Shown here piece by piece: positions 47,256 through 61,752 of a stretch of DNA of 64,000 bases; positions within the stretch are counted from its first letter, which is position 1, and the number at the start of each line of letters is the position of its first letter. The notes under the pieces are model-generated. The model saw nothing but the letters and a program-made list of their open reading frames with translations, was not told where the DNA came from and searched no databases. The position numbers were made by a program, and so were the translations under genes. Source of the DNA: Myxococcales bacterium (lineage in GTDB: Bacteria; Myxococcota_A; UBA9042); the NCBI GenBank assembly GCA_037441385.1, contig JBBISH010000012.1:1-64000 (forward strand). The letters are read 5' to 3'.

Positions 47256-47630
47256 GCAAAAGCACGAAAGGCCCGGGAATTGCTTCCTTGGGCCTTTCTT
47301 GGTCGCTGGGGCAGGATTGCACGCCTGGGCCGGTTTGCTCAAATCCCGCCTCGCGGATGGCAAAAGCACGAAAGGCCCAGGAATTGCTTCCTTGGGCCTT
47401 TCTTGGTCGCGGGGGCAGGATTGCACCCCTGGGCCGGCTTGCTCAAATCCCGCCCCGCGGATGGCAAAAGCACGAAAGGCCCAGGAATTGCTTCCTTGGG
47501 CCTTTCTTGGTCGCGGGGGCAGGATTGCGCCCCTGGGCCGGCTTGTTCAAATCCCGCCCAGCGGACGGCAAAAGCACGAAAGGCCCAGGAATTGCTTCCT
47601 TGGGCCTTTCTTGGTCGCGGGGGCAGGATT
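47256..47630 (-). repeat. tRNA-linked tandem array, 104-bp period (3 full units plus partial)
   Basis: Units start at 47256, 47360, 47464, 47568; each has a terminator hairpin plus a copy of the tRNA 3' end. Confidence 0.95.
47578..47610 (-). terminator. Intrinsic terminator originally following the tRNA (repeated in each array unit)
   Basis: GAAAGGCCCA...TGGGCCTTTC stem followed by GTGCTTTT on the minus strand. Confidence 0.75.
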
Positions 47631-47678
47631 TGAACCTGCGACCTTCGGGTTATGAGTGGCGGACGCTGACCTTGGTGG
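47614..47678 (-). repeat. att site: 65-bp direct repeat containing displaced 3' part of tRNA-Met
   Basis: Identical to 61642-61706; adjoining host sequence ends ACCA, but there is no 5' acceptor strand. Confidence 0.92.
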
Positions 47679-47762
47679 ACGCGCGGGGCCTTGGATTTTG
47701 CCCTGTTGTGAGTCATCGCCGCCTTGAGTACCTTGTCGAACTTGCCCGGCAAGGATAGCCGT

Positions 47763-47784
47763 TGGTCACAAAATGGGAACAGAC
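47763..47784. promoter_or_regulatory. Putative integrase arm-type sites (left end)
   Basis: TGGTCACAAAA-TGGGAACAGAC, 11-bp period, matches the pair at 61570-61591. Confidence 0.6.
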
Positions 47785-49104
47785 GAGCCGAAGAAAGACA
47801 CCAAGAGGCCGCGACGGACGAGCGAAGAGGTAGCAAGAGCGAAGAAGGCGAGAGAGAAGGCGAAGAAGGTGAAGGCGGCGAGGAAGGTCGCGAAGGAGAA
47901 TGCTAAGAAGGCGATCGCTGACAAGAAAAGGGCGGTGCGGGCCGCCGGGGGCACCTGGCCGAAGGTGACCAAGGCGCAGAATGCGGCGGCTTTGAGCGAT
48001 CCCGCGCGGCGACCCAGCCTGGGAGACCTGCACGCAGCGATCAGGACGTTGTCGGTGATGGTCGACTGCTACGAACGGCAAGAACCCATGCTCGACCCGA
48101 AGAATGGCGCCGTCGATCGCGAAAACGACACTGTGCTGCTAGAGGTGATCGAAATCCTACGCAATGCCGCAGCACGACAGAGTTACACCGGTGCAATCCG
48201 GTCCGCCGCTGCCCAGTTGAGCCAGTCGGTTGCACAGGCGGTCGCCACGGCTATCGGCAAGCGGCACAGGGGGCGCGGCGCCCCAGTCACGCGGTCCGGA
48301 ATCGTGCCTCCGGGTTGGCCGGAGTCCTCAGATCGCTTCGTCACAGAATTCGGCATGGCCATTTGGGAATTTCAGCGCGCTACGGGTCAAAGCGTTGACG
48401 CGAAGTTGGCGGCAGAGGCCCTACACACCGCACAGGAAGGCGTCCACAATGCCCGAGCCGCTCACACCGATGTCGGCCCAGCAGACGTTGGGCTACAGGC
48501 TGCAGCTGACATAGCCGGGGTGTCGATTTCGACGATCAAGAAGTGGGCTGCGGCCCAGCGCACAACCGGCAGCAAGAACGCGGAGCCGGAACATGGCCGG
48601 GCAACGACCTTCTACGGTGCACGGTTCGACAACAGCGACCTCGACCAATTCGCACGCCGCTTGTGTAGGCCGTTTGGCGGTGACGCATTCATTCGAGCAG
48701 CTGCGGCCGAAATCGGCGTCGACGACGTGTTGCGGCTGGCTACCCGAATCTTCGACGGAGCCGCCTGGAGCTTGCCGGCATCGCCGGAGTTCTACGCGAA
48801 GCGCGATGCGTTGAAGGCCCTGGTGGCAGCACTCGGGGGCAATCCGGCGCTCTACGGGGCACGAGCTGATGAGCTACCTGCAATCTCGCCACGGACAGGC
48901 GCCGCGCCCGGGTCAATGGAAATTCGAGGGCGGGACGCGCAGGGGGACGGATTGTGGCTGTTTGAGGAAATAGACAAAGGTGCGCGTCTTGTCGACGTTG
49001 CACGCGGGGCTTGGTCCACCGAACCCCTGGCGATTGAGGAGCGCTATCGGAAAATGGTGAAGGAGTTCCTGAGCCAAATGGCACGTGAACTGGCAGGCAA
49101 GTAG
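47773..49104 (+). CDS. Hypothetical protein, Lys-rich N-terminus, possible internal HTH
   Basis: 443-aa ORF; LQAAADIAGVSISTIKKW resembles an HTH; start uncertain. Confidence 0.6.
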   Translation: MGTDEPKKDTKRPRRTSEEVARAKKAREKAKKVKAARKVAKENAKKAIADKKRAVRAAGGTWPKVTKAQNAAALSDPARRPSLGDLHAAIRTLSVMVDCYERQEPMLDPKNGAVDRENDTVLLEVIEILRNAAARQSYTGAIRSAAAQLSQSVAQAVATAIGKRHRGRGAPVTRSGIVPPGWPESSDRFVTEFGMAIWEFQRATGQSVDAKLAAEALHTAQEGVHNARAAHTDVGPADVGLQAAADIAGVSISTIKKWAAAQRTTGSKNAEPEHGRATTFYGARFDNSDLDQFARRLCRPFGGDAFIRAAAAEIGVDDVLRLATRIFDGAAWSLPASPEFYAKRDALKALVAALGGNPALYGARADELPAISPRTGAAPGSMEIRGRDAQGDGLWLFEEIDKGARLVDVARGAWSTEPLAIEERYRKMVKEFLSQMARELAGK

Positions 49105-49245
49105 GTAACGCCTGGCCGCGCCTGGTGGCGGGACGGTGGGCGGATTGGTGCCGAGGCATCCCTAACTTGAGCTTGCTGCCCACTTGATAGCCAAACCGCG
49201 CAGATCGCAACACTGCAGCCAAGCCCAACCCGCGTTTGCTCTGCC

Positions 49246-49644
49246 CTACCCCACCCGCCGCCGGTCCCACAACTGCGCCTCGATCAGCTCCATCGTCGCC
49301 GGATCCGCCGGCCCGCCGAGCGCCTGCCATTCGTCGCGGCAGGCGTTCTCGAACTCCCACACAGCCAGGTTGGCGACCACCAGCGCGTCGACCTTGCACC
49401 CCAGCGCACGGGCCGCGCGGGCGACAACTCCAAGGTTTAGGGCATAGGCCCCGGTCTCGTAGCGGCACAGGGTTACCGGGGCGACCGGCGGCGCCATGCG
49501 GGCTGCTAGGTCCTGCTGCCGATACCCGCGCCGGATCCGCTCTTTGGTCAGGCGCCAGCGGCTGGGGATCAGGCCAAGGCGCGCGAACCGCCGGTGCATG
49601 CGCTTTAGATCGGGCAGTTGGCCCGCAGGCTGGATCGGGTTCAT
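49246..49644 (-). CDS. XRE-family HTH regulator
   Basis: ERIRRGYRQQDLAARM...TLCRYETG...ARALGC; GGAGG RBS. Confidence 0.75.
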   Translation of the reverse strand: MNPIQPAGQLPDLKRMHRRFARLGLIPSRWRLTKERIRRGYRQQDLAARMAPPVAPVTLCRYETGAYALNLGVVARAARALGCKVDALVVANLAVWEFENACRDEWQALGGPADPATMELIEAQLWDRRRVG

Positions 49645-49647
49645 GGG

Positions 49648-51126
49648 TTACCTCCCTCGCAGGGCGCGATCGCGGGTCGCCTCGGCACGGGCAGGCGGTG
49701 GGCCCGACACAGGCATTGGCACTTCCTCGACAGCGCGGCCGGCTGTTGCAGCGTTCCGCAGGGGGCGCAGGCGCACATTTCGCGACGTAGCGCGGGGTTG
49801 CGGCTTCAAGTAGCTCGCCGTGCGAGCGGCGGCCTCCTGCCTGGAGTGTTCGGCCAGCGTCTGCAGCAGCCTCGGCCGCTCTGGGGGCATGTTGGCGGGC
49901 CATGTGCGCCACTTTCCCCCGCAGCGGCTGCAGGATTGCAGTTGCCGGGTAGCAACTCGGCCGCAACCGGTGCACGTCCAGAACTGACGAACCTGGGTGT
50001 CGGCGGGCTGGGCGGCCAAGGTCCACTCGCGATCACCGTGCGCCAAGCCCAGGCGGCGCCAGTTGTCGCCAAAGTCGACCACGAGCAGCGCGTCTTTGCG
50101 GTGCGCCGGCAGCCGACCGATGGCGAGCTCTTGCAGCCAGCGCGAGCGCGACAGTGTCGAGTGGGCGACGAAGATGGCGTCGACGGCGGGCGCTTGCACT
50201 CCTTCGGTAAATAGATCGACCACGCACAGGGCCCCGACCTTGCGCGAGGCGAGTTGCTCGAAGGCCGCGGCGCGTTCGACGTCGGGTGTGCGGTCGTCGA
50301 TGCACGCCGCGCGGATCCGGGCCTCGGCCAGCGCGGTTGCCAGTTCCTTTGCGTGGCGCAGGCTCGCCGCGAAGATCAGCAGGCGCTGGCGGCTGGCAAG
50401 GCTGGTTGCCGCCTCGACGACGGCGCCGATCAACCGCGCGCTGCAGAACGCCTCTTCTTGGTCGCGGGCGTCGAATTCGTTGTCGTAGCGACGGAATAGC
50501 GACACGTCGGGGCATTCGCTGGTGTGCAAGTGGCTCGGCACCAGGTGGCCGGCGCGGACCATGTCGGCGTCGGTCACTGCGACAACGGCCGTGCGGTACA
50601 GGCGCAACAGGGCGTCGTCGGCGACTCGCTCGGGGGTGGCGGACAGGCCGACTAGCGCGGCACCGGGGAAGGCGTCGGCCAGCGCGCGGGCTTGCTCTGG
50701 GTCGACGTGGGCCTCGTCGATGATGATCAGGTCGGGCGCGGCGTCTTGGGGCCAGCGGCGGGCGCGGCGGCACATGGTCTGGGCCATTCCGAGCGTGAGG
50801 TGCGGCGCAGGGCTGGGGGGCTTGGCGGTTGGCGAGCCGAGGGCGGCGACGTCGGCGGTCCAGCGGTGGATCTCGGCGAGGGTCGGGGCGAAGAGTTCAA
50901 GCCGGGGCACGACGTACAGGGTCTTGTTGCTTTGCTCGGCGACGCGGCGGGCCAGCTCGACGGCGATCGCGGTCTTGCCGGCGCCCCTGGGCGCGCAAAG
51001 CATGACGCGGGCCGGTTGGCGTGCGGCGAGCTGGGCACGCAGGGTCGCGAGGAGGCGATCGACGGCGGCGGCTTGGTAGGGGCGGAGAGCGGGCCGTGGT
51101 GTATGCGGGGTTTGGGGGGTGGCCAT
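49648..51126 (-). CDS. SF2 (DEAH, ResIII/YejH-like) helicase with C-terminal Zn ribbon; motif VI degenerate
   Basis: LRPYQ, APRGAGKT, IIIDEAH, GLSATP, FTEGV, CTGC..CSRC. Confidence 0.85.
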   Translation of the reverse strand: MATPQTPHTPRPALRPYQAAAVDRLLATLRAQLAARQPARVMLCAPRGAGKTAIAVELARRVAEQSNKTLYVVPRLELFAPTLAEIHRWTADVAALGSPTAKPPSPAPHLTLGMAQTMCRRARRWPQDAAPDLIIIDEAHVDPEQARALADAFPGAALVGLSATPERVADDALLRLYRTAVVAVTDADMVRAGHLVPSHLHTSECPDVSLFRRYDNEFDARDQEEAFCSARLIGAVVEAATSLASRQRLLIFAASLRHAKELATALAEARIRAACIDDRTPDVERAAAFEQLASRKVGALCVVDLFTEGVQAPAVDAIFVAHSTLSRSRWLQELAIGRLPAHRKDALLVVDFGDNWRRLGLAHGDREWTLAAQPADTQVRQFWTCTGCGRVATRQLQSCSRCGGKWRTWPANMPPERPRLLQTLAEHSRQEAAARTASYLKPQPRATSRNVRLRPLRNAATAGRAVEEVPMPVSGPPPARAEATRDRALRGR

Positions 51127-51353
51127 ATGGCAACTGCGCGCCGCGAATTGGCGGAATTGCCAATCAGTATAGCGATTTCCATGACCTCAGCCAAGGCCGA
51201 CGTGCAAAGTACCGGTTTCGTGCTGCCGGGGCGGCCGCGACATGTAGCGCGCGGCCGTGCCAGGTATCGCCGGAAACTGCACACAAACCGACGGACATGA
51301 AGGTTGTCATCCGCCAGTTGATAGCAACCCGCAGAGTATTGTTTGAATGTCAA

Positions 51354-52100
51354 CTACTTGACACAATCCCCATCGCGGGCAGTGCACTTCTTGAGGACCT
51401 GGCAGTTCAGCGACTGCCGGCAGCTTGCATTATTGGCCGCAACACACTTAGTGCCGTCTGTGCTGCACCGCCCGAACTTCTGACACTGTTCGGAATCAAA
51501 GCAGTCCTCGTCCGATAGGTGAGCGCTCTTTGCTGGAGCGACGGGTGGTGCGGTATCTGCCGCCTTGGCTGGCTTTGTTGTTCCCTGAGGCGCCTTCTTG
51601 GCCCCGGTGCTCTTGGCGCTTGCCGCTGTGCCTTCGTCGGTGGGCGTTTCTTCGACGGGTTCAACTGGGGCAGCGGCCTTCTTGGGCGCTGCTGTTCGCT
51701 TGGGCGGCGGCGTGTAGATGCCAGCACCAGAGTCGACACGGCACGCATACTCAACCGTCCGCGTGGCCAAGATCGTCGATGCCGATGAGCCGAGCGAAGC
51801 CATCGACGTGATACAGCCGGTGTCTCCTTGATTGCAACTGCGCGACAGGGCGTAGCCGGTTGCGGCGGCAAGCCCGAAGGAGATCAACAGGTCGCTGAAG
51901 TCTTGCTTACTCTCAGACCACGCCACGCCGGCCGCTCCGCATTCCCGGGCCGCGTCCGCGGAAATTCGCGTAGCCCCCCAGAAGAGGAACCACTGCTTTT
52001 CCGATTGCGCCGGGCCTGCGGGCGCACTGGTCATTAGGGAGGTCGTAAAGCAGCCGGGGAGGCTCAGGGCGATCGCAATGACGCATAGGATCTTGCGCAT
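51354..52100 (-). CDS. Bor/Iss-like lipoprotein with Cys-rich C-terminal repeat
   Basis: Lipobox LPGC; QWFLFWG...DAARECG...SESKQDF...VEYAC resembles the lambda Bor pattern; C..SEQC...GRC repeats. Confidence 0.6.
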   Translation of the reverse strand: MRKILCVIAIALSLPGCFTTSLMTSAPAGPAQSEKQWFLFWGATRISADAARECGAAGVAWSESKQDFSDLLISFGLAAATGYALSRSCNQGDTGCITSMASLGSSASTILATRTVEYACRVDSGAGIYTPPPKRTAAPKKAAAPVEPVEETPTDEGTAASAKSTGAKKAPQGTTKPAKAADTAPPVAPAKSAHLSDEDCFDSEQCQKFGRCSTDGTKCVAANNASCRQSLNCQVLKKCTARDGDCVK

Positions 52101-52344
52101 GGGAATTCCTGGATGTCACGGATCGCGACAGGGGGCCGCCGGGACACGTACTGCACGGTGCCGGCGTTGGCCGCGCTGGGTTTGGCAAATCGCGACAGAC
52201 AAACCCGACGAGGTGAATGTGCTGACGCCGAAGTGGATCATGCTGCTTTCATTCATGGAGTTTGCGCCGATGAGCACATGCAAGCCAGCGTCACGATCGG
52301 TTCACGGTCAGCAGCAGACTTGATCGTCCAGTTGACTACTTCGG

Positions 52345-53619
52345 TCAGAACGTCGGCGCGATCGTGAACTCGACCTCGACCACGTCGTTGAAGAGAAATC
52401 CCGACTTTGCCCCGGCCTTGATCAGGCCGAGCAGTCCTGTCGTGGACCAAGCGCTACCGTCCGCAAGATCGTCCGAGAACACGTCTTCATCGTACGCCCA
52501 CACGTCAAGCTCTGAGCTTTGGAACAACTTGACGGAAAACGACTCGGAAAACGTGGCCTGAAATACGTCCTGGGCCGCCTTGGTACAGAAAAGGCTCTTG
52601 CCGTCCACCCCAACACACAACTTGGGATCGGGCGCGCCACCCCCGGAGTCCCAGGCAGACTTGGATTTTGGGTCGAGCACCGGGAATTTCGCCGACTTCA
52701 GTGACACGAGGTAAGTCATGCCGTCATACGGCTGGCATTTGCCGCCTGCGCACACGTCGGTGGGGCCGCATTGGCCAGACGACGAGCAAGCCGTGCAACC
52801 TGAACCTCCGTAAACGCAAACCTTGCCACCAGTGCACGCCGCGGCAGCTAGCTTCTTCTTGCACCCGTCGGTGCCATTGATGCACTGCTCAACCTTGCCC
52901 GCACTGGTGCACTTGTCGCCCGAACACTCGTCAGCGCACGGTACCTTGCACGTTCCCGAGTTGCAGACCGCACCGCCCGTGCATCCACAAGTTGCGCCGC
53001 AGCCGTCGTCCTGCCCGCACGACACGCTGTTACAGGCGGGCACGCACGTCGGCTTGGCTAAGCACGCGCCGCCCTGACAGACCTGGTCGAGGCTGCATTC
53101 GGAACTCTTCTTGCAGGGCCGACACTCCGAGTCTCCGGTTGGGCAGACCTGACCATTGCCGCACGATGACGGCGAGTTGGTGACGGGGCACCCGTCGGCG
53201 CCGGTTCCGCAGGTCTGAATTTCGTTTCCGCCTAGGCACAGTTGGACACACGTTGCGGTGCAGGTCACGCCGTTTGGTTGCCCTTCGCAAACGCCACCCT
53301 TGCAGACCCGCGAAGAGCCGTCGAAGCGACACTCAAAGTCGCCCGCGCATGCCCTACATTTGGCCTCGCCGGGGACGCACACGGCACCGCCCGGGCAGAT
53401 CATCGTCTGCGACGGGACAGAGCAGCCGCCGTTGTCGGTTCTGCAGGTCACCAGCCTTCCCTTTGTGTCGCACGCTTGGGAGCAGGCAATCCCACAGGTC
53501 GATCCCGGCGACACGTCAGCGCCCACGCCAGACCCGCCGGTTCCACCACCGGATTGACAACTGGCGGCCGTCGCTATGAGGCAAGCGGCGCAAAAAGATA
53601 GAACCAAGTTGCCGCGCAT
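52345..53619 (-). CDS. Cys-rich lipoprotein with C-terminal C2-like domain
   Basis: Lipobox AASC; dozens of Cys; C-terminal WD..GGAPDP...T....D...F.ESF...VWAYDEDVFSDD pattern. Confidence 0.75.
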   Translation of the reverse strand: MRGNLVLSFCAACLIATAASCQSGGGTGGSGVGADVSPGSTCGIACSQACDTKGRLVTCRTDNGGCSVPSQTMICPGGAVCVPGEAKCRACAGDFECRFDGSSRVCKGGVCEGQPNGVTCTATCVQLCLGGNEIQTCGTGADGCPVTNSPSSCGNGQVCPTGDSECRPCKKSSECSLDQVCQGGACLAKPTCVPACNSVSCGQDDGCGATCGCTGGAVCNSGTCKVPCADECSGDKCTSAGKVEQCINGTDGCKKKLAAAACTGGKVCVYGGSGCTACSSSGQCGPTDVCAGGKCQPYDGMTYLVSLKSAKFPVLDPKSKSAWDSGGGAPDPKLCVGVDGKSLFCTKAAQDVFQATFSESFSVKLFQSSELDVWAYDEDVFSDDLADGSAWSTTGLLGLIKAGAKSGFLFNDVVEVEFTIAPTF

Positions 53620-53732
53620 TCGATCACCGTTACGATGTTGCACGCCGTATAACATGACGTTCAACATCGGTCAAGTTGCAGCGCGTTCCGACGCAAACTC
53701 CCCTGTCGCCCACGCGGCAAGGGCCTGCGCAA

Positions 53733-54173
53733 ATGGCACAGCGGTCGACGAACAATCCTGAATGCCGAGCGCTCGCCGCCGTAATAGCTAGGAATTTGCG
53801 CAAGCGACGACTCGCCCACGGGCTCTCTCAGGCGGAAGTGGCGGAGGTGCTTGGCGTAAGCGTTGAATCCTTTTCGCGAATCGAGCGCGGCTTGTCCCTG
53901 CCCAGTTTCCCGACACTGCTGCGGATGGCGACAATGTTCGGAGCGCAAGCGGGTGACCTATTGAAATCGGAGGGCGAGCCTGAGATGGCTCGACGGCAGC
54001 CGCGTGTAACTGCAGATTACTTGGAGACCGCACCCACTCCGACCGCCATCGCCCCACAGCACGACGCGCAGCAGGCCGCGGTGCTATTTCTGCGAATCGT
54101 TGACGCGAGCCGCACACTTGATGCCGCTCGTCTGGAGAAGTTGGCGGTCGCCGCAGAGGAACTGGCAAAATGA
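53733..54173 (+). CDS. XRE-family HTH repressor
   Basis: NLRKRRLAHGLSQAEVAEVLGVSVESFSRIERGLSLPSFPTL. Confidence 0.88.
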   Translation: MAQRSTNNPECRALAAVIARNLRKRRLAHGLSQAEVAEVLGVSVESFSRIERGLSLPSFPTLLRMATMFGAQAGDLLKSEGEPEMARRQPRVTADYLETAPTPTAIAPQHDAQQAAVLFLRIVDASRTLDAARLEKLAVAAEELAK

Positions 54174-54870
54174 TCCGCGGTTCGCGGCCGGACAGGTGGC
54201 GCCGCCCCGGTGCGCCTGCAATCCGATGCGGGGAGCGCTGCTCCGGCCTCGCTGCTTCCGGTCGTCCTTCCCTTAGCTTATCCAGGCCGCGCCAGCGGCG
54301 CCACCCAAAGTCGCCTGCACTTCGCCCTGCACCGGCGTAGCACCACCGGAAACCGGTTGAGCGAGTTCAGACTCTTGGGGGCAAGTCTCGGCGGCGTCAC
54401 CCGTGATCCCAGCTGCGCCGGCGTTACCCGCGCGTTGCTGCTTGTCGTTGCCCGACCACGGCCGGATAGCTTGGCGACGGACTGCGACGCCTGCCGCGGG
54501 CTGGATGCGGCCGCGCCATGCGATGCCACGGATGATCGCCGGGCGCCAGCCCGTGCACCGTCCCGCACCGGTGCGCAGCAGCGAGAAACCACGGCGCAGC
54601 TCTGGCGCGGTGGGGCCGCCACCGCACCGCAATAGCGCGCGACGCCCTGGAGCACACCCGCGGCGGTAGCGGCGCGCGAAAAGCCCAGGTGCCGGCCCAC
54701 ACCGTCTGCAGGCGAGGCACGTGAACCCGCGACGCGGCGCAGTAACCCGATTGCGGGGCAGTTCCATACGATGCGGTTGTTGTCGCCATTAGTGCAGGCA
54801 TGGATGGCAGGCATTAGACAGCATAAACGAAGGTAACAACCTGGCGCTGAGGTTACAGCAACGCCGCGGG

Positions 54871-54900
54871 GGTCAACCGGCACCAGGTCAACCGGCACCA
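54871..54900. repeat. 15-bp tandem direct repeat
   Basis: GGTCAACCGGCACCA twice; core CAACCGGCAC recurs at 54989. Confidence 0.8.
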
Positions 54901-55199
54901 GGGCCCAACGGAGTCGGTTAGCCAACAGCGTGGGGCCGATCCGCGTGCCCTGGCTTTTCGGCGCAATGGCCGGCAGCCGGAAGGCGCACAACCGGCACAG
55001 GGAACCGTTGCTGGGCTGCGGTTCTTGCCCTCGGAGCCGGCGGCTTTGGGGGCATCTTTGGCCGCTATGTCATGCGGGCGGGCCGGGGCCCGTGCCGCAG
55101 GCGTAAGGGCCAGCGGTCCCGCCCTACTTACACTCCGTTCCGTTCCGTGTACGGTTATTGCACACAACGGCCTAAAATTATTGGACGCGGCATGAGATA

Positions 55200-55281
55200 G
55201 AGTGTGAAGCGTTGCCGGTTGGAGTGTGAAGTGTTGCCGGTTAGGCTGTGAAGCGTTGCGCGCAGAGTGTGAAGCGTTGCT
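55200..55281. repeat. Iteron array, putative replication origin
   Basis: TGTGAAG(C/T)GTTGC at 55203, 55225, 55247, 55268 (22/22/21-bp spacing); AT-rich CCTAAAATTATT nearby; directly after the putative rep stop. Confidence 0.8.
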
Positions 55282-55285
55282 GAAT

Positions 55286-56770
55286 CTACATCAACGACCT
55301 GTGTTTACGTCTGTTTCCTTTGCGGCCGTTTGCGCGGCCTTCGATTCGGAGTCTGCCGCTAGCGGCGATAAAGTCGCGCTCCAGGCCGTGCGGGTCCGCC
55401 AGCGTGAATTGGCCGGGTTCGGGCTCCAGCAACAACGCAGGCGCCTCTTCGCTCTCGCCTTCCCGCCACAGCTCCAGCAACTTCGGCAGCGCCGCCACTG
55501 GCAGGCCCGCCGAGCGAGCGAGCTCGCGCAGTCGGTCCTCGCTGATGCAAACAGAGCCAAATCGGAACAGCTCTTCGGCTCGGTCCACCAGTTCGACCAA
55601 GAGAAGTCGGTGCAGCATCCAGGCCTTGCCCCAGTCGTTGGACCGTAGGGCCGAGACTGGCGGCTCGAACCGCAGTTCGGGCACCAGACGCCGAGCCATC
55701 CGGTCTGCATGGGTGCCGCCTGCCAGATTTGCCATCTGCGCCGCCATCCCCGGCAACAGCGCTTCGCCCAGCGTAATGCGCACGACGCTCACTTGCCCGG
55801 GCGCTGGTTTGGTGACGCGCAGCCATGTCCACAGGCCTCCGATCTTGAGTGTGGGCTGCATCCACGTGATGTGCTGGCCGGCAGTGAGCATGGCTTCAAG
55901 GGCGCCAAAGTCGCGACTGGTATGGCGCACTGCCAGGGCCAGCGCCGACAGACCGCCAAGAAACTCGACAACGCGAAAATCGACACCGGGCTCACCGGCC
56001 GCGTGCCGCTCCCGTTGGCTGTGCCCGGTACTTACAAGCAGTCGCAGCAAGCGATGCCACGCCACCGTGCCGAACTGCGCAAGACCTCCGTGCACCGCTG
56101 TCAGGATCGCGGGGTCAAGGGTAGCGACCGTGCCGAGGATATTGGGACCATCACCGCGGACAGCGCCATCGGTCGGGGAAATCGTCAGTCGACCGCTGCC
56201 AGCTGGGACCAGCACGTCGTAGGCCACCACTCGGGGCAGCCCAGCTGGTGCAACTGCGTGCCGGTGTAGCCACTGAGCCTCGACATGGGCCTCCCAGAGA
56301 GTGCGCGCCACGGCAGCGAGTGCCGGGTGCGCGCAATCGCCCCATAATTTGTAGAGGTCGCTGTCGGTGCCGTCGCCGCCGCGGTAGGCCTGCAGCCGCT
56401 GGGCCGAAAGTGTACGCAGGTTGGTCGCGCGGCCGGATTCGATGGCGTCCATCCAATCGGCCAAAGCGGCGTCCAAGGCCAACATGTCGTCGCGAATCGT
56501 CGGGCCTTGCCCGCCGGCCGCGTGGTCCCCCTGCGCCGGAAGAACGAATGTCGCCGCCAAGCGCCTCGTTGCGTCAAGAAGGGCAGTGGCTAGCATCGCC
56601 TGCGCAACGCGGTCAACCCTGGCCGATTCGCGCGACAGCGTAGTGGTCACGGCGGCGGAGCGCGCATTGGCCCCTGCCGATTCGGGCCATAGCCTAACAG
56701 CCGACAGCGCCTCCGCTTCGTATGCGGCAGGGCATTGGCCGACGGCAGCTGGCAGCGAATCAGAGGTCAT
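55286..56770 (-). CDS. Hypothetical protein, putative replication initiator
   Basis: ATG 56770 overlaps the helicase end; gene ends just before the iterons; function inferred from position only. Confidence 0.55.
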   Translation of the reverse strand: MTSDSLPAAVGQCPAAYEAEALSAVRLWPESAGANARSAAVTTTLSRESARVDRVAQAMLATALLDATRRLAATFVLPAQGDHAAGGQGPTIRDDMLALDAALADWMDAIESGRATNLRTLSAQRLQAYRGGDGTDSDLYKLWGDCAHPALAAVARTLWEAHVEAQWLHRHAVAPAGLPRVVAYDVLVPAGSGRLTISPTDGAVRGDGPNILGTVATLDPAILTAVHGGLAQFGTVAWHRLLRLLVSTGHSQRERHAAGEPGVDFRVVEFLGGLSALALAVRHTSRDFGALEAMLTAGQHITWMQPTLKIGGLWTWLRVTKPAPGQVSVVRITLGEALLPGMAAQMANLAGGTHADRMARRLVPELRFEPPVSALRSNDWGKAWMLHRLLLVELVDRAEELFRFGSVCISEDRLRELARSAGLPVAALPKLLELWREGESEEAPALLLEPEPGQFTLADPHGLERDFIAASGRLRIEGRANGRKGNRRKHRSLM

Positions 56771-58208
56771 CGTCGTCCGCCAGCGCTCGCTCGCGCCCGG
56801 ATATCGGCACCAGATGGCCGTGTCCCGTCGATTTTGTAGCTGCCTGCAAATTCGGAAGGTGTCGAACCCGAATCTGTTTGTGCAGCTGGTCAAGTTCACG
56901 GTCAATCTTGGCGAGCTCAGTTGTGTTGCCCTGGGCTTCACACGCGGTGCGTTCGTCAACCAAGGCCGCCACGCGCGCTTCTGCTTTCTGCAAGGCGTCC
57001 TTGGCACGGCGCACCGGCGCGGGGTCACCTGCGGTCTTGCGTCGTTGCGGGGCAACGTATGCAGCCGCCTCTGTGTTAGCCGGTCCCCGCGGCGCGCCTT
57101 CGCTGAGCCATCCCTGCGACTCAACCAATCGGCACCATGTGCTCTGGCCGGCCCGCAGCTTGGCGGCTCCAATCCACATAGCGCCGGGGTCGGCACCATA
57201 GGTGTTGCCGTCGTCCTTGGCTTCCCCCGTGGCCCGCGCCAGCACCAGCGAAGAGTCACTCGCAAACTCAATGTCGCCACTCTCTTTGCCGACACCGATG
57301 AGGTCGGCGGCATGCGTCTTGGGCCAGCCCATCTCGTCGAGAACAATACCATTTAGTGCCGCGTAGTTAGTCCGCGCCGTACTCGACAGGGCCAGCACGA
57401 CCACGTTGTGCTTCCGGGCCACCTCGCGTGCCTGATAGGCGGCCTTGCTGAGACGCTCTCGGGTATCCTCATTCCGCACCGGCGCGCCATTCTCCGGCGT
57501 TGCACCGCCAAGAAGTTGAAGAAAGTCCAGGACAAATAGGACTGGAGCCGTGGGCGGAAGCTCGGGGTGCGCCGTGCGCAACTGCTCCGCCGCGCCACCA
57601 ATCTGGTCGTAGCCCCAGCCGTGCGGACCTTGTTCGGTGCACAGGTAGAGCGGGAGTTTGGCCAGCATGGGCCCGCCATCCGCAACCAATCGCTCCAGGT
57701 GCTGGACTCCCGGCGTCTTCCCCCACTTGCCTGTGTAGAGGGACGACCACCAGGTCCCAGCAGATTCACCGGCAGTCATACAGAGCAGGCGTGCGACCAG
57801 GCCGAGGCTGTCTAGCTCAAGCCCAACATACCGAACAGGAATCCCGGCCAGCGCCGCCTGCAGGGCCACCTGCAGGGCAAACTGGCTCTTGCCAGTGCCG
57901 GTGCCGCCGGTGAGGATATGCAGGCCCGGCCAAAAGCCGCCACCCAACATCGCAGCCAGATTCGGCCAGTTGGGCAGCAGTATCGGACCATCCTCGCCCG
58001 AGGCGCGTCGGCGCAGGTGGCCAATCGCGTCAGGCAGGATTTCGCCGATTCGCTCCTTGGCCAGCGCAGCGCGGGCTTCGGCCACCTTGGGACCCAGCAT
58101 GGGCACCGTATCGGCCAGCCGCTGCGCCACAAGTGCCGCTTTGGCGTCCTCGGCGAGCCAGTCAGCCGGTTTGATGTCGCAATCGTGAAATGGTCTGTCG
58201 TCGCTCAT
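56760..58208 (-). CDS. DnaB-like replicative helicase
   Basis: GGTGTGKS Walker A, YVGLEL, VLDFLQ, KESGDIE, AAKLRAG. Confidence 0.88.
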   Translation of the reverse strand: MSDDRPFHDCDIKPADWLAEDAKAALVAQRLADTVPMLGPKVAEARAALAKERIGEILPDAIGHLRRRASGEDGPILLPNWPNLAAMLGGGFWPGLHILTGGTGTGKSQFALQVALQAALAGIPVRYVGLELDSLGLVARLLCMTAGESAGTWWSSLYTGKWGKTPGVQHLERLVADGGPMLAKLPLYLCTEQGPHGWGYDQIGGAAEQLRTAHPELPPTAPVLFVLDFLQLLGGATPENGAPVRNEDTRERLSKAAYQAREVARKHNVVVLALSSTARTNYAALNGIVLDEMGWPKTHAADLIGVGKESGDIEFASDSSLVLARATGEAKDDGNTYGADPGAMWIGAAKLRAGQSTWCRLVESQGWLSEGAPRGPANTEAAAYVAPQRRKTAGDPAPVRRAKDALQKAEARVAALVDERTACEAQGNTTELAKIDRELDQLHKQIRVRHLPNLQAATKSTGHGHLVPISGRERALADDDDL

Positions 58209-59626
58209 GCCGCCCCCATTTCGCGCAATTGCTGGTTGTATATGTTCAGTTCCCAGTCATTCAAAGCGCTCAGCTGGCACCGCAGCACGTTAGCTACCGC
58301 CGTGGGCACAGCGTCGGGGCGGCCCCAGTCGCGACAGCAGTACGCCCAGACCACCGCGAGGCCGTCGGGGCCGATGGCATCGCGCAACGCCTCGCAAGCC
58401 TGTGCCACCTGGTCTGCCTTTGCCGGCGCTGACACCGCTGCAAAGGTCGGGCCCGCGCGTTGGATCGCAGGCGCCGCAGGTTGCGGTACGTTCGGCTTGA
58501 ATTCTCGACGCATTCTGCAGCCGCGGGCGATCAGCAGGGTTTGCCACGCCGCCGCATACTTGTCGCCTGCATCGTCGGCATGAGTGCGGAGCGCCACGGG
58601 CCATCCCTCGGGCACCACAGCACCCAGCGCCGGATCAGCCGATCCGTTCCAAATCCCCCACACGGCAGATCGCTTGCCTTTGGGCAGTTCCGACGCAACC
58701 GTCACCGCCAACCGCAACCAGTCGGGCACGCCCTCGGCAATTTCGACCAGGGGGAGGCCATGCGAGCGCGGGTCGGCCCCTGTCGCAAGCACAAGGCCAG
58801 CCGCTGACGCACGGCCGGGCCACGCGGCCTTGTCAGCCGGGCCGTAGGCCGGCAGCACGTTGCGCGCGTGCAAGCTCGCCACCCGCAGCCGTCCAGGGGT
58901 GTCGGGGTCCGCTTCCCATGCTCGCACCACCAGGCGGTGCCCGCTCGCCGTCCAGGGCTTGCCGTCTTTGTACCGCGCCCACCGGGGCAGGTTCGCCAGG
59001 TCGGCCGGCAACGCGCGCGCCAAGTCGAACTTTGCGACCGTCGCCGGGTCGATCGCGCCGTCGTGTCGCCCGGCCAGCCAAGCCGCCATCTCGGGGTCGG
59101 CAGTCACGGGCAGGCAGCGCGCCCAAAGGGCCGCAACCTCTGCCGCAGGGGGCCGGGGCTTGGGTTGGTTGACCTGGACGGCCACCGTTGCACGCCGAGG
59201 CCGGGCAAGTGTAGCCGGGGTCGATCCGCCGTCTGGCGAAGCGTCACACCAGCCGCGTGCCGCGTACCATTCGCGCACCTGCGCGCTCGTGTCGCTGTCG
59301 CCCTTTGCCCACGCCCTGCCGGTCAAGGACCAGGCGACCAGCGCCAGCCCGTCACCTTTGGCGCCGCAACCTTCGGTGCCGTTGCTGCAGCAGGCCCAGC
59401 GCTTGCCGTCGGCTTCGATGCGGCACCGCCCACGCCGGTCGGTTCGGCCTGGGTTGGCACGCGTGGCCATGCCGCAGCTCGGGCACGGGCCAAAGCTCTT
59501 GCCGTCGCGATGCAAATCGAGGCCCAGTGTGGCCACCACTTCGGGCAGTGGCGCGCGGCAGGCGTCGTCGAGCCAGTTGCTCGGTGTGCGGTCCGTGCCG
59601 TGACGGCTCAGGGTGGGCGGCGTCAT
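58205..59626 (-). CDS. Primase-like protein (Zn finger plus TOPRIM)
   Basis: GPCPSC...W.CC...CGAKGDG zinc-binding domain; IAEGVPDWL and HADDAG TOPRIM-like motifs; ATGA coupling. Confidence 0.75.
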   Translation of the reverse strand: MTPPTLSRHGTDRTPSNWLDDACRAPLPEVVATLGLDLHRDGKSFGPCPSCGMATRANPGRTDRRGRCRIEADGKRWACCSNGTEGCGAKGDGLALVAWSLTGRAWAKGDSDTSAQVREWYAARGWCDASPDGGSTPATLARPRRATVAVQVNQPKPRPPAAEVAALWARCLPVTADPEMAAWLAGRHDGAIDPATVAKFDLARALPADLANLPRWARYKDGKPWTASGHRLVVRAWEADPDTPGRLRVASLHARNVLPAYGPADKAAWPGRASAAGLVLATGADPRSHGLPLVEIAEGVPDWLRLAVTVASELPKGKRSAVWGIWNGSADPALGAVVPEGWPVALRTHADDAGDKYAAAWQTLLIARGCRMRREFKPNVPQPAAPAIQRAGPTFAAVSAPAKADQVAQACEALRDAIGPDGLAVVWAYCCRDWGRPDAVPTAVANVLRCQLSALNDWELNIYNQQLREMGAA

Positions 59627-59949
59627 GGCGCCACATCGGTTGCCAGTTCTTCGGTCCTGGGCGGCTGCGGTGAAGGTGAGTCGGCCAGCGAAGGGCTGGG
59701 CAACTCCGGGGCGGGCTCGGTCAGCCGCAGCAGGAACTCGATCGCTTGCCGCGCCTGTTCGCGATCCAGCTTGTTGGCCAGCCCGAAAAGGTACAGCTGC
59801 TGACCGCGGCTCATGGCCTTCGGCGGGCCCATCAACCAGGCGATGAGAAACCCGGCTTCGGGCTTGCTCAGCGCCTTCAAGCGGTCCGGGGCGGTCAAGC
59901 CATCGAGGTAGCGAAGTTGACCGTCGCTGGCGGTGACATGCGTGCTCAT
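59623..59949 (-). CDS. Hypothetical protein with two short Q..YL..L repeats
   Basis: ATGA-coupled on both sides; ASDGQLRYL / MSRGQQLYL. Confidence 0.7.
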   Translation of the reverse strand: MSTHVTASDGQLRYLDGLTAPDRLKALSKPEAGFLIAWLMGPPKAMSRGQQLYLFGLANKLDREQARQAIEFLLRLTEPAPELPSPSLADSPSPQPPRTEELATDVAP

Positions 59950-60170
59950 TTCTGCACCGCCGCGGGTACCCGGTGCGACTTCAAGAACGCCTCCAAGGCG
60001 TGTTGCTCAAACAGGACCGTGCGGGCCCCGAGCCGGACGTGGTCGATCCGTTTGTGGTGGACGAGGGAGTAGAGCGAACCAACTGGAATTCCAAGGAACT
60101 TCGCAGCCGACTCGTAGCGGTGAATGATGGTGCTGGTGGGCTTGTCCGTGGCTTCAGGGCTTGTCGCCAT
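59946..60170 (-). CDS. Excisionase / HTH_17 (AlpA-like) DNA-binding protein
   Basis: SAAKFLGIPVGSLYSLVHHKRIDHVRLGARTVLF; AAGGAG RBS. Confidence 0.85.
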   Translation of the reverse strand: MATSPEATDKPTSTIIHRYESAAKFLGIPVGSLYSLVHHKRIDHVRLGARTVLFEQHALEAFLKSHRVPAAVQK

Positions 60171-60308
60171 CTTGGCTCCTTCGTACGGCGGCTGATTCCG
60201 TCGTACACGAGCCAAATTGCGCTGAGCTTGAGGGGCGCGGAAGACGCCGGATCCGTGCGAATCCTGGTTCTTCCCGGCAACATGCCATTCTACATGGCAT
60301 TTTTCGTG

Positions 60309-61418
60309 CTACTGTGCACGAAATTGCAGAACCTTTGCGCCCGTCGAGGCTGGCGCCGCCGAGCCGAACCGGCCGTAGTCTTCGGCAAACGCAGCGGGCT
60401 GCAGGTGGGCGTAGCGCATGGTCATCTGGATCGACTGATGGCCCAGAATCTTCTGCAGTTTCCACAGGTCGCCGCCGTTCATCGCCCAGTGGCTGGCAAA
60501 CGTGTGGCGCAAGCTGTGAAAGTGGATCGCGTGCTTGTAGCGGCCCGACGCGGGACGCTTGAACCCGGCGGCGTCCAGCACGTCATGTAGGCGCTCTTGG
60601 AAGATCCGGGCGCTGGGCTGGTGCTGCTGCCCATCGCGGTTGGGAAAGACCAGGTCCGTTGGATTCCGCTGCAGCCAGTCGCGCAGCACAGGTAGCAGCG
60701 GATCCAAGATCGGTACGGGGCGCGAGCGCCCGCTCTTGGTCGGGCCCGCGTGGCTGCGCTGGACCATGATCAGTCGCCGTGCAAAGTTCACATCGGACCA
60801 GCGCAGGGCCGCCAGTTCGCCAACCCGCAGACCGGTGTACACGGCAGTCGCATACATCACGAAGACGTCGGGGCCGGCCTCGGCGGCTGCGGCCAAGAAG
60901 CGGTCGATGTCGTCCTGGCTCTGCAGAAACGTGTAATCTTCGGCATCTACATAGGTCTTGGGCTTCTTGATGCGCGGCAGGGTCGCCAGCCACCCCAGGT
61001 CGATCGCTGTGCGGAGCATGGTGCCGAGGAGCGTCAGGATGTTCGACACCGTCTTGGGGCTCAGATCGCGCTTGCTTGCCCGCAGGGCGTCGATGTGCGC
61101 CACGCCGATCGCCGTGAGCCGCAACGGCCCCAAGGCAGGCTTGAGGTGCTTGCGGATGACGCTCTGGTCGTCCTTCTGGCTGCGCTTCTCCACCGCGTGG
61201 TTGGCGAGCCAGTACTCGCACAGCTCGTCGAACGTGTGCTCGATCGGCGGAGCCGGGCGACTCCCCGCCTTGATCGCGTCGACCTCGGCTTGGCGGGCCC
61301 GCAGCGCCTTCTCGGCGTCGCGGTGGTTGTCGTGGAGTTCAGAGCACCGCTTTCCCGTGTGATCGGTCCAGCGGATACGGTACTTGTCGCGGAATTTCTC
61401 GGGGGTTGCCATGCGCAT
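60309..61418 (-). CDS. Tyrosine recombinase / phage-type integrase
   Basis: TGLRVGE, TKSG, HSLRH, LGH, MRYAH catalytic residues; adjacent to att. Confidence 0.96.
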   Translation of the reverse strand: MRMATPEKFRDKYRIRWTDHTGKRCSELHDNHRDAEKALRARQAEVDAIKAGSRPAPPIEHTFDELCEYWLANHAVEKRSQKDDQSVIRKHLKPALGPLRLTAIGVAHIDALRASKRDLSPKTVSNILTLLGTMLRTAIDLGWLATLPRIKKPKTYVDAEDYTFLQSQDDIDRFLAAAAEAGPDVFVMYATAVYTGLRVGELAALRWSDVNFARRLIMVQRSHAGPTKSGRSRPVPILDPLLPVLRDWLQRNPTDLVFPNRDGQQHQPSARIFQERLHDVLDAAGFKRPASGRYKHAIHFHSLRHTFASHWAMNGGDLWKLQKILGHQSIQMTMRYAHLQPAAFAEDYGRFGSAAPASTGAKVLQFRAQ

Positions 61419-61569
61419 CCTTTTAGGTGCGCGCGTCCAGTTGCGGAAGAATACGAAACCGACCGGATCCTGGTTTTCCAGCCCGGTATGCGACTTCTAG
61501 CGACGAAAGCGCCCGGGTGCCGGCCGCGCAACAGTGTCTTGCGCAGCGGCAGGGGCCCCGGTGGGTCCG

Positions 61570-61591
61570 TGGTCACAAAGTGGTCACAAAA
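61570..61591. promoter_or_regulatory. Putative integrase arm-type sites (right end)
   Basis: TGGTCACAAAG-TGGTCACAAAA tandem 11-mers between int and att. Confidence 0.65.
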
Positions 61592-61595
61592 CGCC

Positions 61596-61636
61596 GAAAG
61601 CCCGGCACCTACGGCGAACGTAAGTACCGGGCTTTC
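61596..61636 (-). terminator. Element-supplied hairpin terminator for the tRNA
   Basis: GAAAGCCCGG...CCGGGCTTTC stem followed by GGCGTTTT on the minus strand. Confidence 0.6.
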
Positions 61637-61642
61637 TTGGAG

Positions 61643-61716
61643 TCGCGGGGGCAGGATTTGAACCTGCGACCTTCGGGTTATGAGTGGCGGACGCTGACCT
61701 TGGTGGCCACCCCGCA
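61643..61716 (-). tRNA. tRNA-Met(CAT), initiator-like, with non-canonical nt 11-32 (possible pseudogene or consensus error)
   Basis: TGCGGGGTGG...CTCATAACCCGAAGGTCGCAGGTTCAAATCCTGCCCCCGCGA: acceptor stem, T-arm and CAT loop intact, length correct (74 nt before CCA), but D-arm and 5' anticodon-stem strand do not pair canonically. Confidence 0.7.
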
Positions 61717-61723
61717 GTCAGGC

Positions 61724-61752
61724 CTTGTAAAGGAAGTGGGGCAGGCTGTCAA
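61724..61752 (-). promoter_or_regulatory. sigma70 promoter of the tRNA
   Basis: TTGACA-N17-TACAAG ending 7 nt before the tRNA 5' end. Confidence 0.7.

Follow-up and report, generated by a model that had tools for sequence, protein, structure and literature searches.

tRNA-linked repeats (TLRs) lie in tRNA and rRNA operons, and what defines them is a last stretch of 18-19 bp that reproduces the 3' end of the gene upstream. Each locus holds one to five of them; known since 1978, they were still credited with "no known function" in 2021 (PMC8144298, main text). Those of the E. coli rrA, rrB and rrF loci give rise to read-through RNAs that are processed and bind Hfq and CsrA, and the word "inverted" is absent from the main text of this source, whose supplements may show TLR alignments (PMC8144298). 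In the annotated tyrT region of E. coli, each of the four tyrT/tyrV units carries an inverted arm, cognate to the tRNA, ahead of the direct copy, and the tyrT unit is present at 1-14 places per E. coli genome. Neither this arm nor a prokaryote-wide class of TLRs was found described in the literature consulted; the primary TLR papers (Bosl and Kersten 1991, 1994; Williams 2002) or Rudd (1999) may well describe the arm. REP/BIME elements and MITEs are short palindromic non-coding modules which occur in tandem and have no enzyme of their own. The attR fragments of integrated islands (Islander classes A and J) repeat the tRNA 3' end in direct orientation, downstream of the gene, and a crossover in the T-stem region is reported for 1836 of 3919 islands (PMC4383910, Table 1).

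We analysed here a tandem array standing behind the displaced 3' half of a tRNA-fMet gene in a 64,000-nt stretch of a Myxococcales contig (hereafter the window). Judged by its sequence, this array is a real and very compact TLR. As in the E. coli TLRs (the 178-bp tyrT/tyrV repeats with the RtT RNA and those of rrA/rrB/rrF), the units lie directly behind a tRNA gene, in tandem and in variable number, and their 19-nt end is identical to the tRNA end and starts at the same place of the T-loop. They directly follow the tRNA-fMet 3' half in the window and an intact tRNA-fMet gene in two related genomes (G001 and G003), and there are three of them in the window and one to three in relatives; the match of each direct copy to the gene end is given in Table 1. 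The units differ from the E. coli TLRs by their inner part, which spans 15-19 nt instead of ~100 nt of structured sequence, by the terminator-like hairpin that each of them contains, by their hosts, an initiator tRNA and tRNA-Gly, and by the lack of sequence similarity to any Rfam family at the gathering score. Eight weak Rfam matches on the array, all below that score, were treated as chance, and the RtT covariance model gave no match up to an E-value of 10; the unit has the same layout as RtT without being its sequence homologue. The earlier note had likened the array to tyrT as a repeat of a tRNA 3' end, a comparison which is right and stronger than it claimed, the inverted arm being present in all four tyrT/tyrV repeats. 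The inverted copy, which it took for a new feature, is therefore already part of the E. coli repeats.

The module resembles REP/BIME elements and MITEs in its shortness, its palindrome, its tandem copies and the lack of an enzyme of its own, but it is not dispersed and its stem is built of the sequence of the neighbouring tRNA; neither dispersed copies in the genome carrying the window nor a cognate transposase was found, and its contig carries no RAYT/Y1 gene. With island attR fragments the units share the downstream direct repeat of the tRNA 3' end, and an island of the class A type occupies the tRNA-fMet gene of the window. They differ from such fragments in being ~100 bp long, in having neither integrase nor anticodon loop, and in containing an inverted copy.

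Layout of the array

The 104-bp tandem units proposed earlier were recovered by Tandem Repeats Finder (96% matches), with a score of 687 that is the clear maximum among the 11 arrays of the window. Every unit consists of a hairpin resembling a terminator, the tRNA-fMet T-loop/3' end in inverted copy, a loop of 18 nt and the same end copied directly over 19 nt. Along the minus strand, the displaced tRNA 3' half is followed by one hairpin and then by three successions of inverted arm, loop, direct copy and hairpin (Table 1), in agreement with the claim that every unit holds both a direct and an inverted copy of the tRNA end; all three direct copies in the window bear the announced ACCA end. The interior of the array (47393-47513) is identical in a contig of the sequencing run X1, at a depth of 10.8, close to that of the flanks as for a single-copy sequence; X1 is possibly the source sample, and its contigs represent a separate assembly and not a separate sample. 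No second copy of the unit was found elsewhere in the genome carrying the window (G000), where the module occurs at one locus only, nor was any antisense target of the unit found in this genome.

A terminator had also been placed after each unit. The hairpin is indeed stable (two of its copies were folded, with z-scores of -3.65 and -4.50), and homologous hairpins stand behind tRNA-fMet in the genus; but its U-tract is interrupted and a consensus terminator scan made no call, so that it is a terminator by shape only.

Table 1. Features of the array, the tRNA-fMet gene and the island in the window
Feature	Position	Strand	Evidence
Tandem array of tRNA-linked repeat units, period 104, 3.6 copies	47256-47630	-	Repeat finder; agreement of X1 contig
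Displaced host 3' half of tRNA-fMet (attR), ending in CCA	47612-47656	-	Sequence match
Terminator-like hairpin, copy 1 (further copies at 47474-47507, 47370-47403 and 47266-47299)	47578-47611	-	Fold z-scores; genus homologues
Unit 1, inverted arm, complementary to tRNA ~53-72 save for one missing base and one G.U	47545-47563	-
Loop of unit 1, 18 nt, partly like the loops of genus fMet and Gly units	47527-47544	-
Direct copy 1, matching the final 19 nt of the tRNA at 19/19	47508-47526	-
Inverted arm of unit 2, the sole arm with a full 7-bp acceptor-like stem to its own copy	47441-47459	-
Direct copy 2, 19/19	47404-47422	-
Inverted arm of unit 3	47337-47355	-
Direct copy 3, 18/19; distal unit, the most diverged	47300-47318	-
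Integrated island between attR and attL	47657-61641	.	One contig over 47627-61671 without difference
Tyrosine integrase of the island	60309-61418	-	PF00589, E 1.4e-36; phrog_1
tRNA-fMet gene, attL side	61643-61716	-	Rfam tRNA, 29.1 bits; canonical in relatives
Promoter-like site of the tRNA gene (TTGACA, 17 nt, TACAAG)	61724-61752	-	Read from sequence; similar hexamers in relatives

Distribution in the genus and among other prokaryotes

Eleven genomes of the window's genus were compared (G000 to G010). Of 107 genomes of the class, 3 matched the exact fMet pattern, each of them within this genus; a loose pattern independent of the tRNA matched 5 of 37 genomes of the family, again all from this genus and none from the 26 of other genera. 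Inspection shows a recognisable fMet unit in six of the eleven genomes (G000, G001, G003, G004, G006 and, in a decayed form, G005); G002 and G009 have kept the hairpin with at most a remnant of the unit, the far end of the fMet locus lies outside the view in G008 and G010, and no fMet gene was found in G007. The number of units varies between species of the genus. The module is also present behind tRNA-Gly in G003 (two genes), G004 and G010, with both arms fitting the local tRNA. The search for analogous arrays at other tRNA loci, proposed earlier as a check, has a positive outcome in these three genomes but not in G000, where none of the three tRNA-Gly genes is followed by the module and no cognate inverted end was found behind the 50 tRNA calls.

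Over tRNA positions 58-65, all eight positions pair with the arm in 13 of the 14 genus units. Positions 58-62 are fixed by the search pattern and positions 63-68 are free of it; the latter, which are not alike in fMet and the two Gly genes, covary with the arm. The loops of the fMet and Gly units are partly alike, which suggests that a single module moved between loci. Mismatches display no G.U excess on the tRNA strand (Fisher p 0.19-0.83), hence no sign of strand-specific RNA pairing. The arm has a 15-nt core that is nearly invariant in species whose flanking genes are just ~67-77% identical in DNA, and four bases of this core have no partner in the unit's own direct copy. Decay is most advanced in the distal copies. 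The last direct copy is succeeded by an island-type terminator in G003, G004 and G005, and in G003 further by arm repeats and the remnant of an integrase.

Loci from many groups of Bacteria and Archaea, at least 120 in all, matched a generic pattern (T-loop motif, 50-80 nt, inverted motif, 6-35 nt, AATCC). Among the matches listed, 107 tRNA genes have a downstream inverted motif outside antisense tRNAs (three rows dropped), and there are 80 distinct tRNA ends, a pattern-selected set which includes related genomes and one locus from the window's genus. A cognate direct copy lies within 250 nt in 50 of these 80, as compared with a mean of 0.85 and a maximum of 4 in 200 permutations, and none of the copies is inside another tRNA. 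Still among the matches listed, the arm agrees with its own tRNA beyond the motif at 4.0 of 10 positions, against 2.8 ± 0.15 for permuted pairs, and none of 2000 permutations reached 4.0. In an even sample of the phylum, the exact tRNA motif with the inverted motif was found in 10 of 301 genomes; a metagenome scan with the fMet-specific pattern gave one locus and no new unit type, and none of the four viral matches had a cognate extension at the pattern. Six archaeal loci (L067, L077, L079, L094, L100 and L114) show the same arrangement of parts and a loop motif that recurs among them; in five of the six the direct copy is 33-36 nt past the arm.

The search for a helper covered 79 of the 105 ORFs from 72 survey loci, 26 near-duplicates or short overlaps being left out. 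No recurring nuclease, recombinase or reverse transcriptase stands beside the units among these 79 ORFs, which comprise one tyrosine integrase, one weak HNH and no Y1_Tnp. G000 has a single GIY-YIG match, within a frame of 691 aa, and six Y1_Tnp (RAYT/Y1) matches, all of them on contigs other than that of the array.

Folding of the units, origin of the module and possible functions

The earlier note viewed the array as a series of tRNA-mimic minihelices. Its description of unit 2 (47404-47459, minus strand) is accurate for both sequence and fold, with 7 bp, one bulged C and 7 bp; this predicted fold (-30.8 kcal/mol, z -1.98, 10 of 200 shuffles equally stable) is weakly above chance. The extension to every unit fails, however, since, when the units were folded one by one, the full 7-bp acceptor-like stem was obtained in unit 2 only: unit 1 (47508-47563) takes an alternative fold (z -1.01) and unit 3 (47300-47355) forms this stem in part only. 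Among nine variable columns between copies, three fall in the acceptor-like stem (47560, 47351 and 47307), and all three changes break pairs, with none compensated within a unit. The bases substituted at 47560, in the unit 1 arm, and at 47307, in the direct copy of unit 3, are complementary to each other, possibly what is left of a compensated unit that was divided by a later duplication, although chance could produce it as well at this single position.

The T-stem is not closed by a 7-nt T-loop but by an unrelated loop of 15-22 nt, and the distal part of the acceptor-like pairs is decayed in relatives. The encoded NCCA of the three window units is copied from the host gene; it is found in only one of ten relatives' units with a visible end, the tRNA genes of these relatives being mostly devoid of encoded CCA. 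In continuous RNA, arm 1 is predicted to bind the end of the upstream tRNA through 16-18 expected pairs, at the expense of the T-stem and with no pair to its own copy, in all four sequences folded (the natural and intact G003 fMet, G003 Gly and G010 Gly loci, and the window attR with unit 1). In the predicted fold of the whole array, similarly, no arm is mainly paired to its own copy, and according to these models a minihelix would form only if the unit is excised from the longer RNA. Stem decay, scarcity of NCCA, absence of a T-loop and pairing of arm 1 with the upstream tRNA end together leave the tRNA-mimic proposal unsupported and make a minihelix function unlikely; an anti-tRNA role, as predicted from folding only, would be a better RNA hypothesis. 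None of the three 18-nt loops contains the GGA motif that a CsrA sponge would display.

The array is probably a minimal TLR, that is a palindromic module at a tRNA 3' end which was amplified by slippage and is largely a passenger. Such a module would enter at the 3' end of a tRNA gene and duplicate that end, with no enzyme of its own and with the assistance of a putative helper. DNA-level copying within the palindrome, by template switching or conversion, would keep the outer inverted arm matched to the local tRNA, and new copies would arise on the tRNA-proximal side when the 19-nt repeats slip or undergo unequal exchange. In island-free cells, transcription would occur only by read-through of a leaky terminator, the RNA being perhaps trimmed like the E. 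coli TLR RNAs; in the window, the island cuts the array off from the tRNA promoter, at the distance of ~14 kb indicated earlier. The island-type terminator after the last copy in G003-G005 is as expected if the unit entered after the island, but this arrangement could also stem from recombination between 18-bp repeats. The passenger interpretation has further to contend with the absence of a mobilising enzyme among the 79 neighbouring ORFs, with the restriction of the module to one locus in G000 and with the near-invariant core of the arm, which is better conserved than the flanking genes and may reflect selection. A more general proposal would regard TLRs as pan-prokaryotic, enzyme-less mobile hairpins which recognise the universal T-loop motif of tRNA genes, insert at the tRNA 3' end while duplicating it and re-template their arm to every new tRNA under the action of a putative helper, with the smallest form present here at two tRNA types and an arm able to act as an anti-tRNA on read-through RNA; in this full extent, it is tentative and on balance unlikely.

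The arm could instead act in cis as an anti-tRNA. In read-through RNA, it would zip onto the upstream T-arm and acceptor strand and misfold the precursor, causing its decay or delaying its processing, the direct copies and tandem units being by-products or sinks for the arm. This agrees with the pairing predicted for the three natural sequences and for the window attR with unit 1, and with the fact that the arm keeps bases complementary to the start of the T-loop and absent from its own direct copy, bases which in the window are unchanged only in unit 1, the unit adjoining the full T-loop. Equilibrium folding, however, leaves out co-transcriptional folding, tertiary structure and tRNA modification, the wobble pairs have no strand bias, and the arm is absent from most relatives' tRNA-fMet genes outside the genus; we consider this explanation improbable. 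An equally low probability is given to small-RNA genes, whereby units would be cut from read-through RNA via the copied tRNA end into short hairpin RNAs, either CCA-ending minihelices or RrB-like regulators. The processed, Hfq- and CsrA-binding read-through RNAs of the E. coli rrA/B/F TLRs provide a precedent (PMC8144298, main text), unit 2 alone is predicted to fold as a 14-bp hairpin ending in ACCA, and the missing CCA in relatives is not fatal to this explanation because many tRNA genes of the window's genome lack an encoded CCA. It is weakened by the presence of the full acceptor-like stem in one of the three window units, by the three stem changes, which all break pairs, by the decay of the distal stem in relatives, by the lack of both a T-loop and a GGA in the 18-nt loop, by the whole-array fold, and by the promoter now lying 14 kb away.

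That the units are remnants of integrase traffic or decoy att sites, left over from an island of the T-loop/junction class, seems very improbable to us. Islands with a T-stem-region crossover are common (1836/3919; PMC4383910, Table 1), tRNA-fMet is an island hotspot in the family, and direct copies can border islands, since an island-type terminator follows the last of them in three relatives. Yet the fMet att repeats observed begin at the anticodon loop, which is lacking in the units, and such traffic leaves unexplained the inverted arm matched to the tRNA; the same module is found at tRNA-Gly genes, and none of the four viral matches has a cognate extension. The crossover region of the resident integrase (43 bp from the anticodon loop onward) is itself absent from the units, and as they share only its last 19 nt they are not att sites for this enzyme. 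The idea of spare att sites put forward by the earlier note consequently falls for the resident integrase, although the copies of the three relatives can border islands.

In kind the locus is ordinary, and copies of tRNA ends such as these can lead island finders astray. As a passenger TLR or otherwise, the unit of this genus is the shortest TLR version seen in this analysis, at two tRNA types, and it isolates the essentials, namely an inverted arm that matches the tRNA, a short loop and a direct copy of 19 nt. Two questions thereby become testable: the origin of the match between arm and tRNA and the refolding of the upstream tRNA by the arm in read-through RNA.

The tRNA-fMet gene and the resident island

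The tRNA-fMet gene on the attL side is the single initiator tRNA gene found in the genome; ARAGORN reported no tRNA in the window, and Rfam recovered the gene at threshold. In the window as given, the island ends share 65 bp and the D-arm of the tRNA looks destroyed, 22 nt of the gene (61685-61706) being identical to the island arm adjoining attR. The corresponding X1 contig (depth 13.8) differs at 61686-61706, where its letters are those of the canonical tRNA sequence, and the promoter-linked tRNA-fMet genes of relatives are all canonical at the D-arm. An aberrant initiator tRNA was rejected on these two grounds, and the broken-looking tRNA is probably an assembly artefact, an example of att repeats corrupting assemblies. 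The true att repeat is most likely the 43 bp at 47614-47656, from the anticodon loop to the discriminator and followed by CCA, like the attR sites of relatives.

In addition to its integrase, the island encodes an excisionase-like HTH protein (HTH_17), a DnaB-like helicase, an HTH_3 repressor and a ResIII/DEAD helicase. Its large ORFs at 58205-59626, 52345-53667, 51354-52100 and 47773-49104 have no Pfam, PHROG or PADLOC match, and no capsid gene was recognised over its 14 kb. The island has a depth of 16.6 against 12.5-13.8 in the flanks, a difference too weak to argue for excision. A 22-bp repeat in 3.8 copies (55198-55280) lies downstream of the helicase region and may be iteron-like, considering its position. 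Arm-type repeats are present at both island ends (47763-47781 and 61570-61599), and similar paired repeats follow the attL terminators in relatives. Tandem islands occupy tRNA-fMet in other family members (L041, L053 and L036), with integrases 44-57% identical to that of the window. Finally, the initiator tRNA genes of many members of the class (L016-L030 and the window) have T1 and G72, a weak and less usual first pair.
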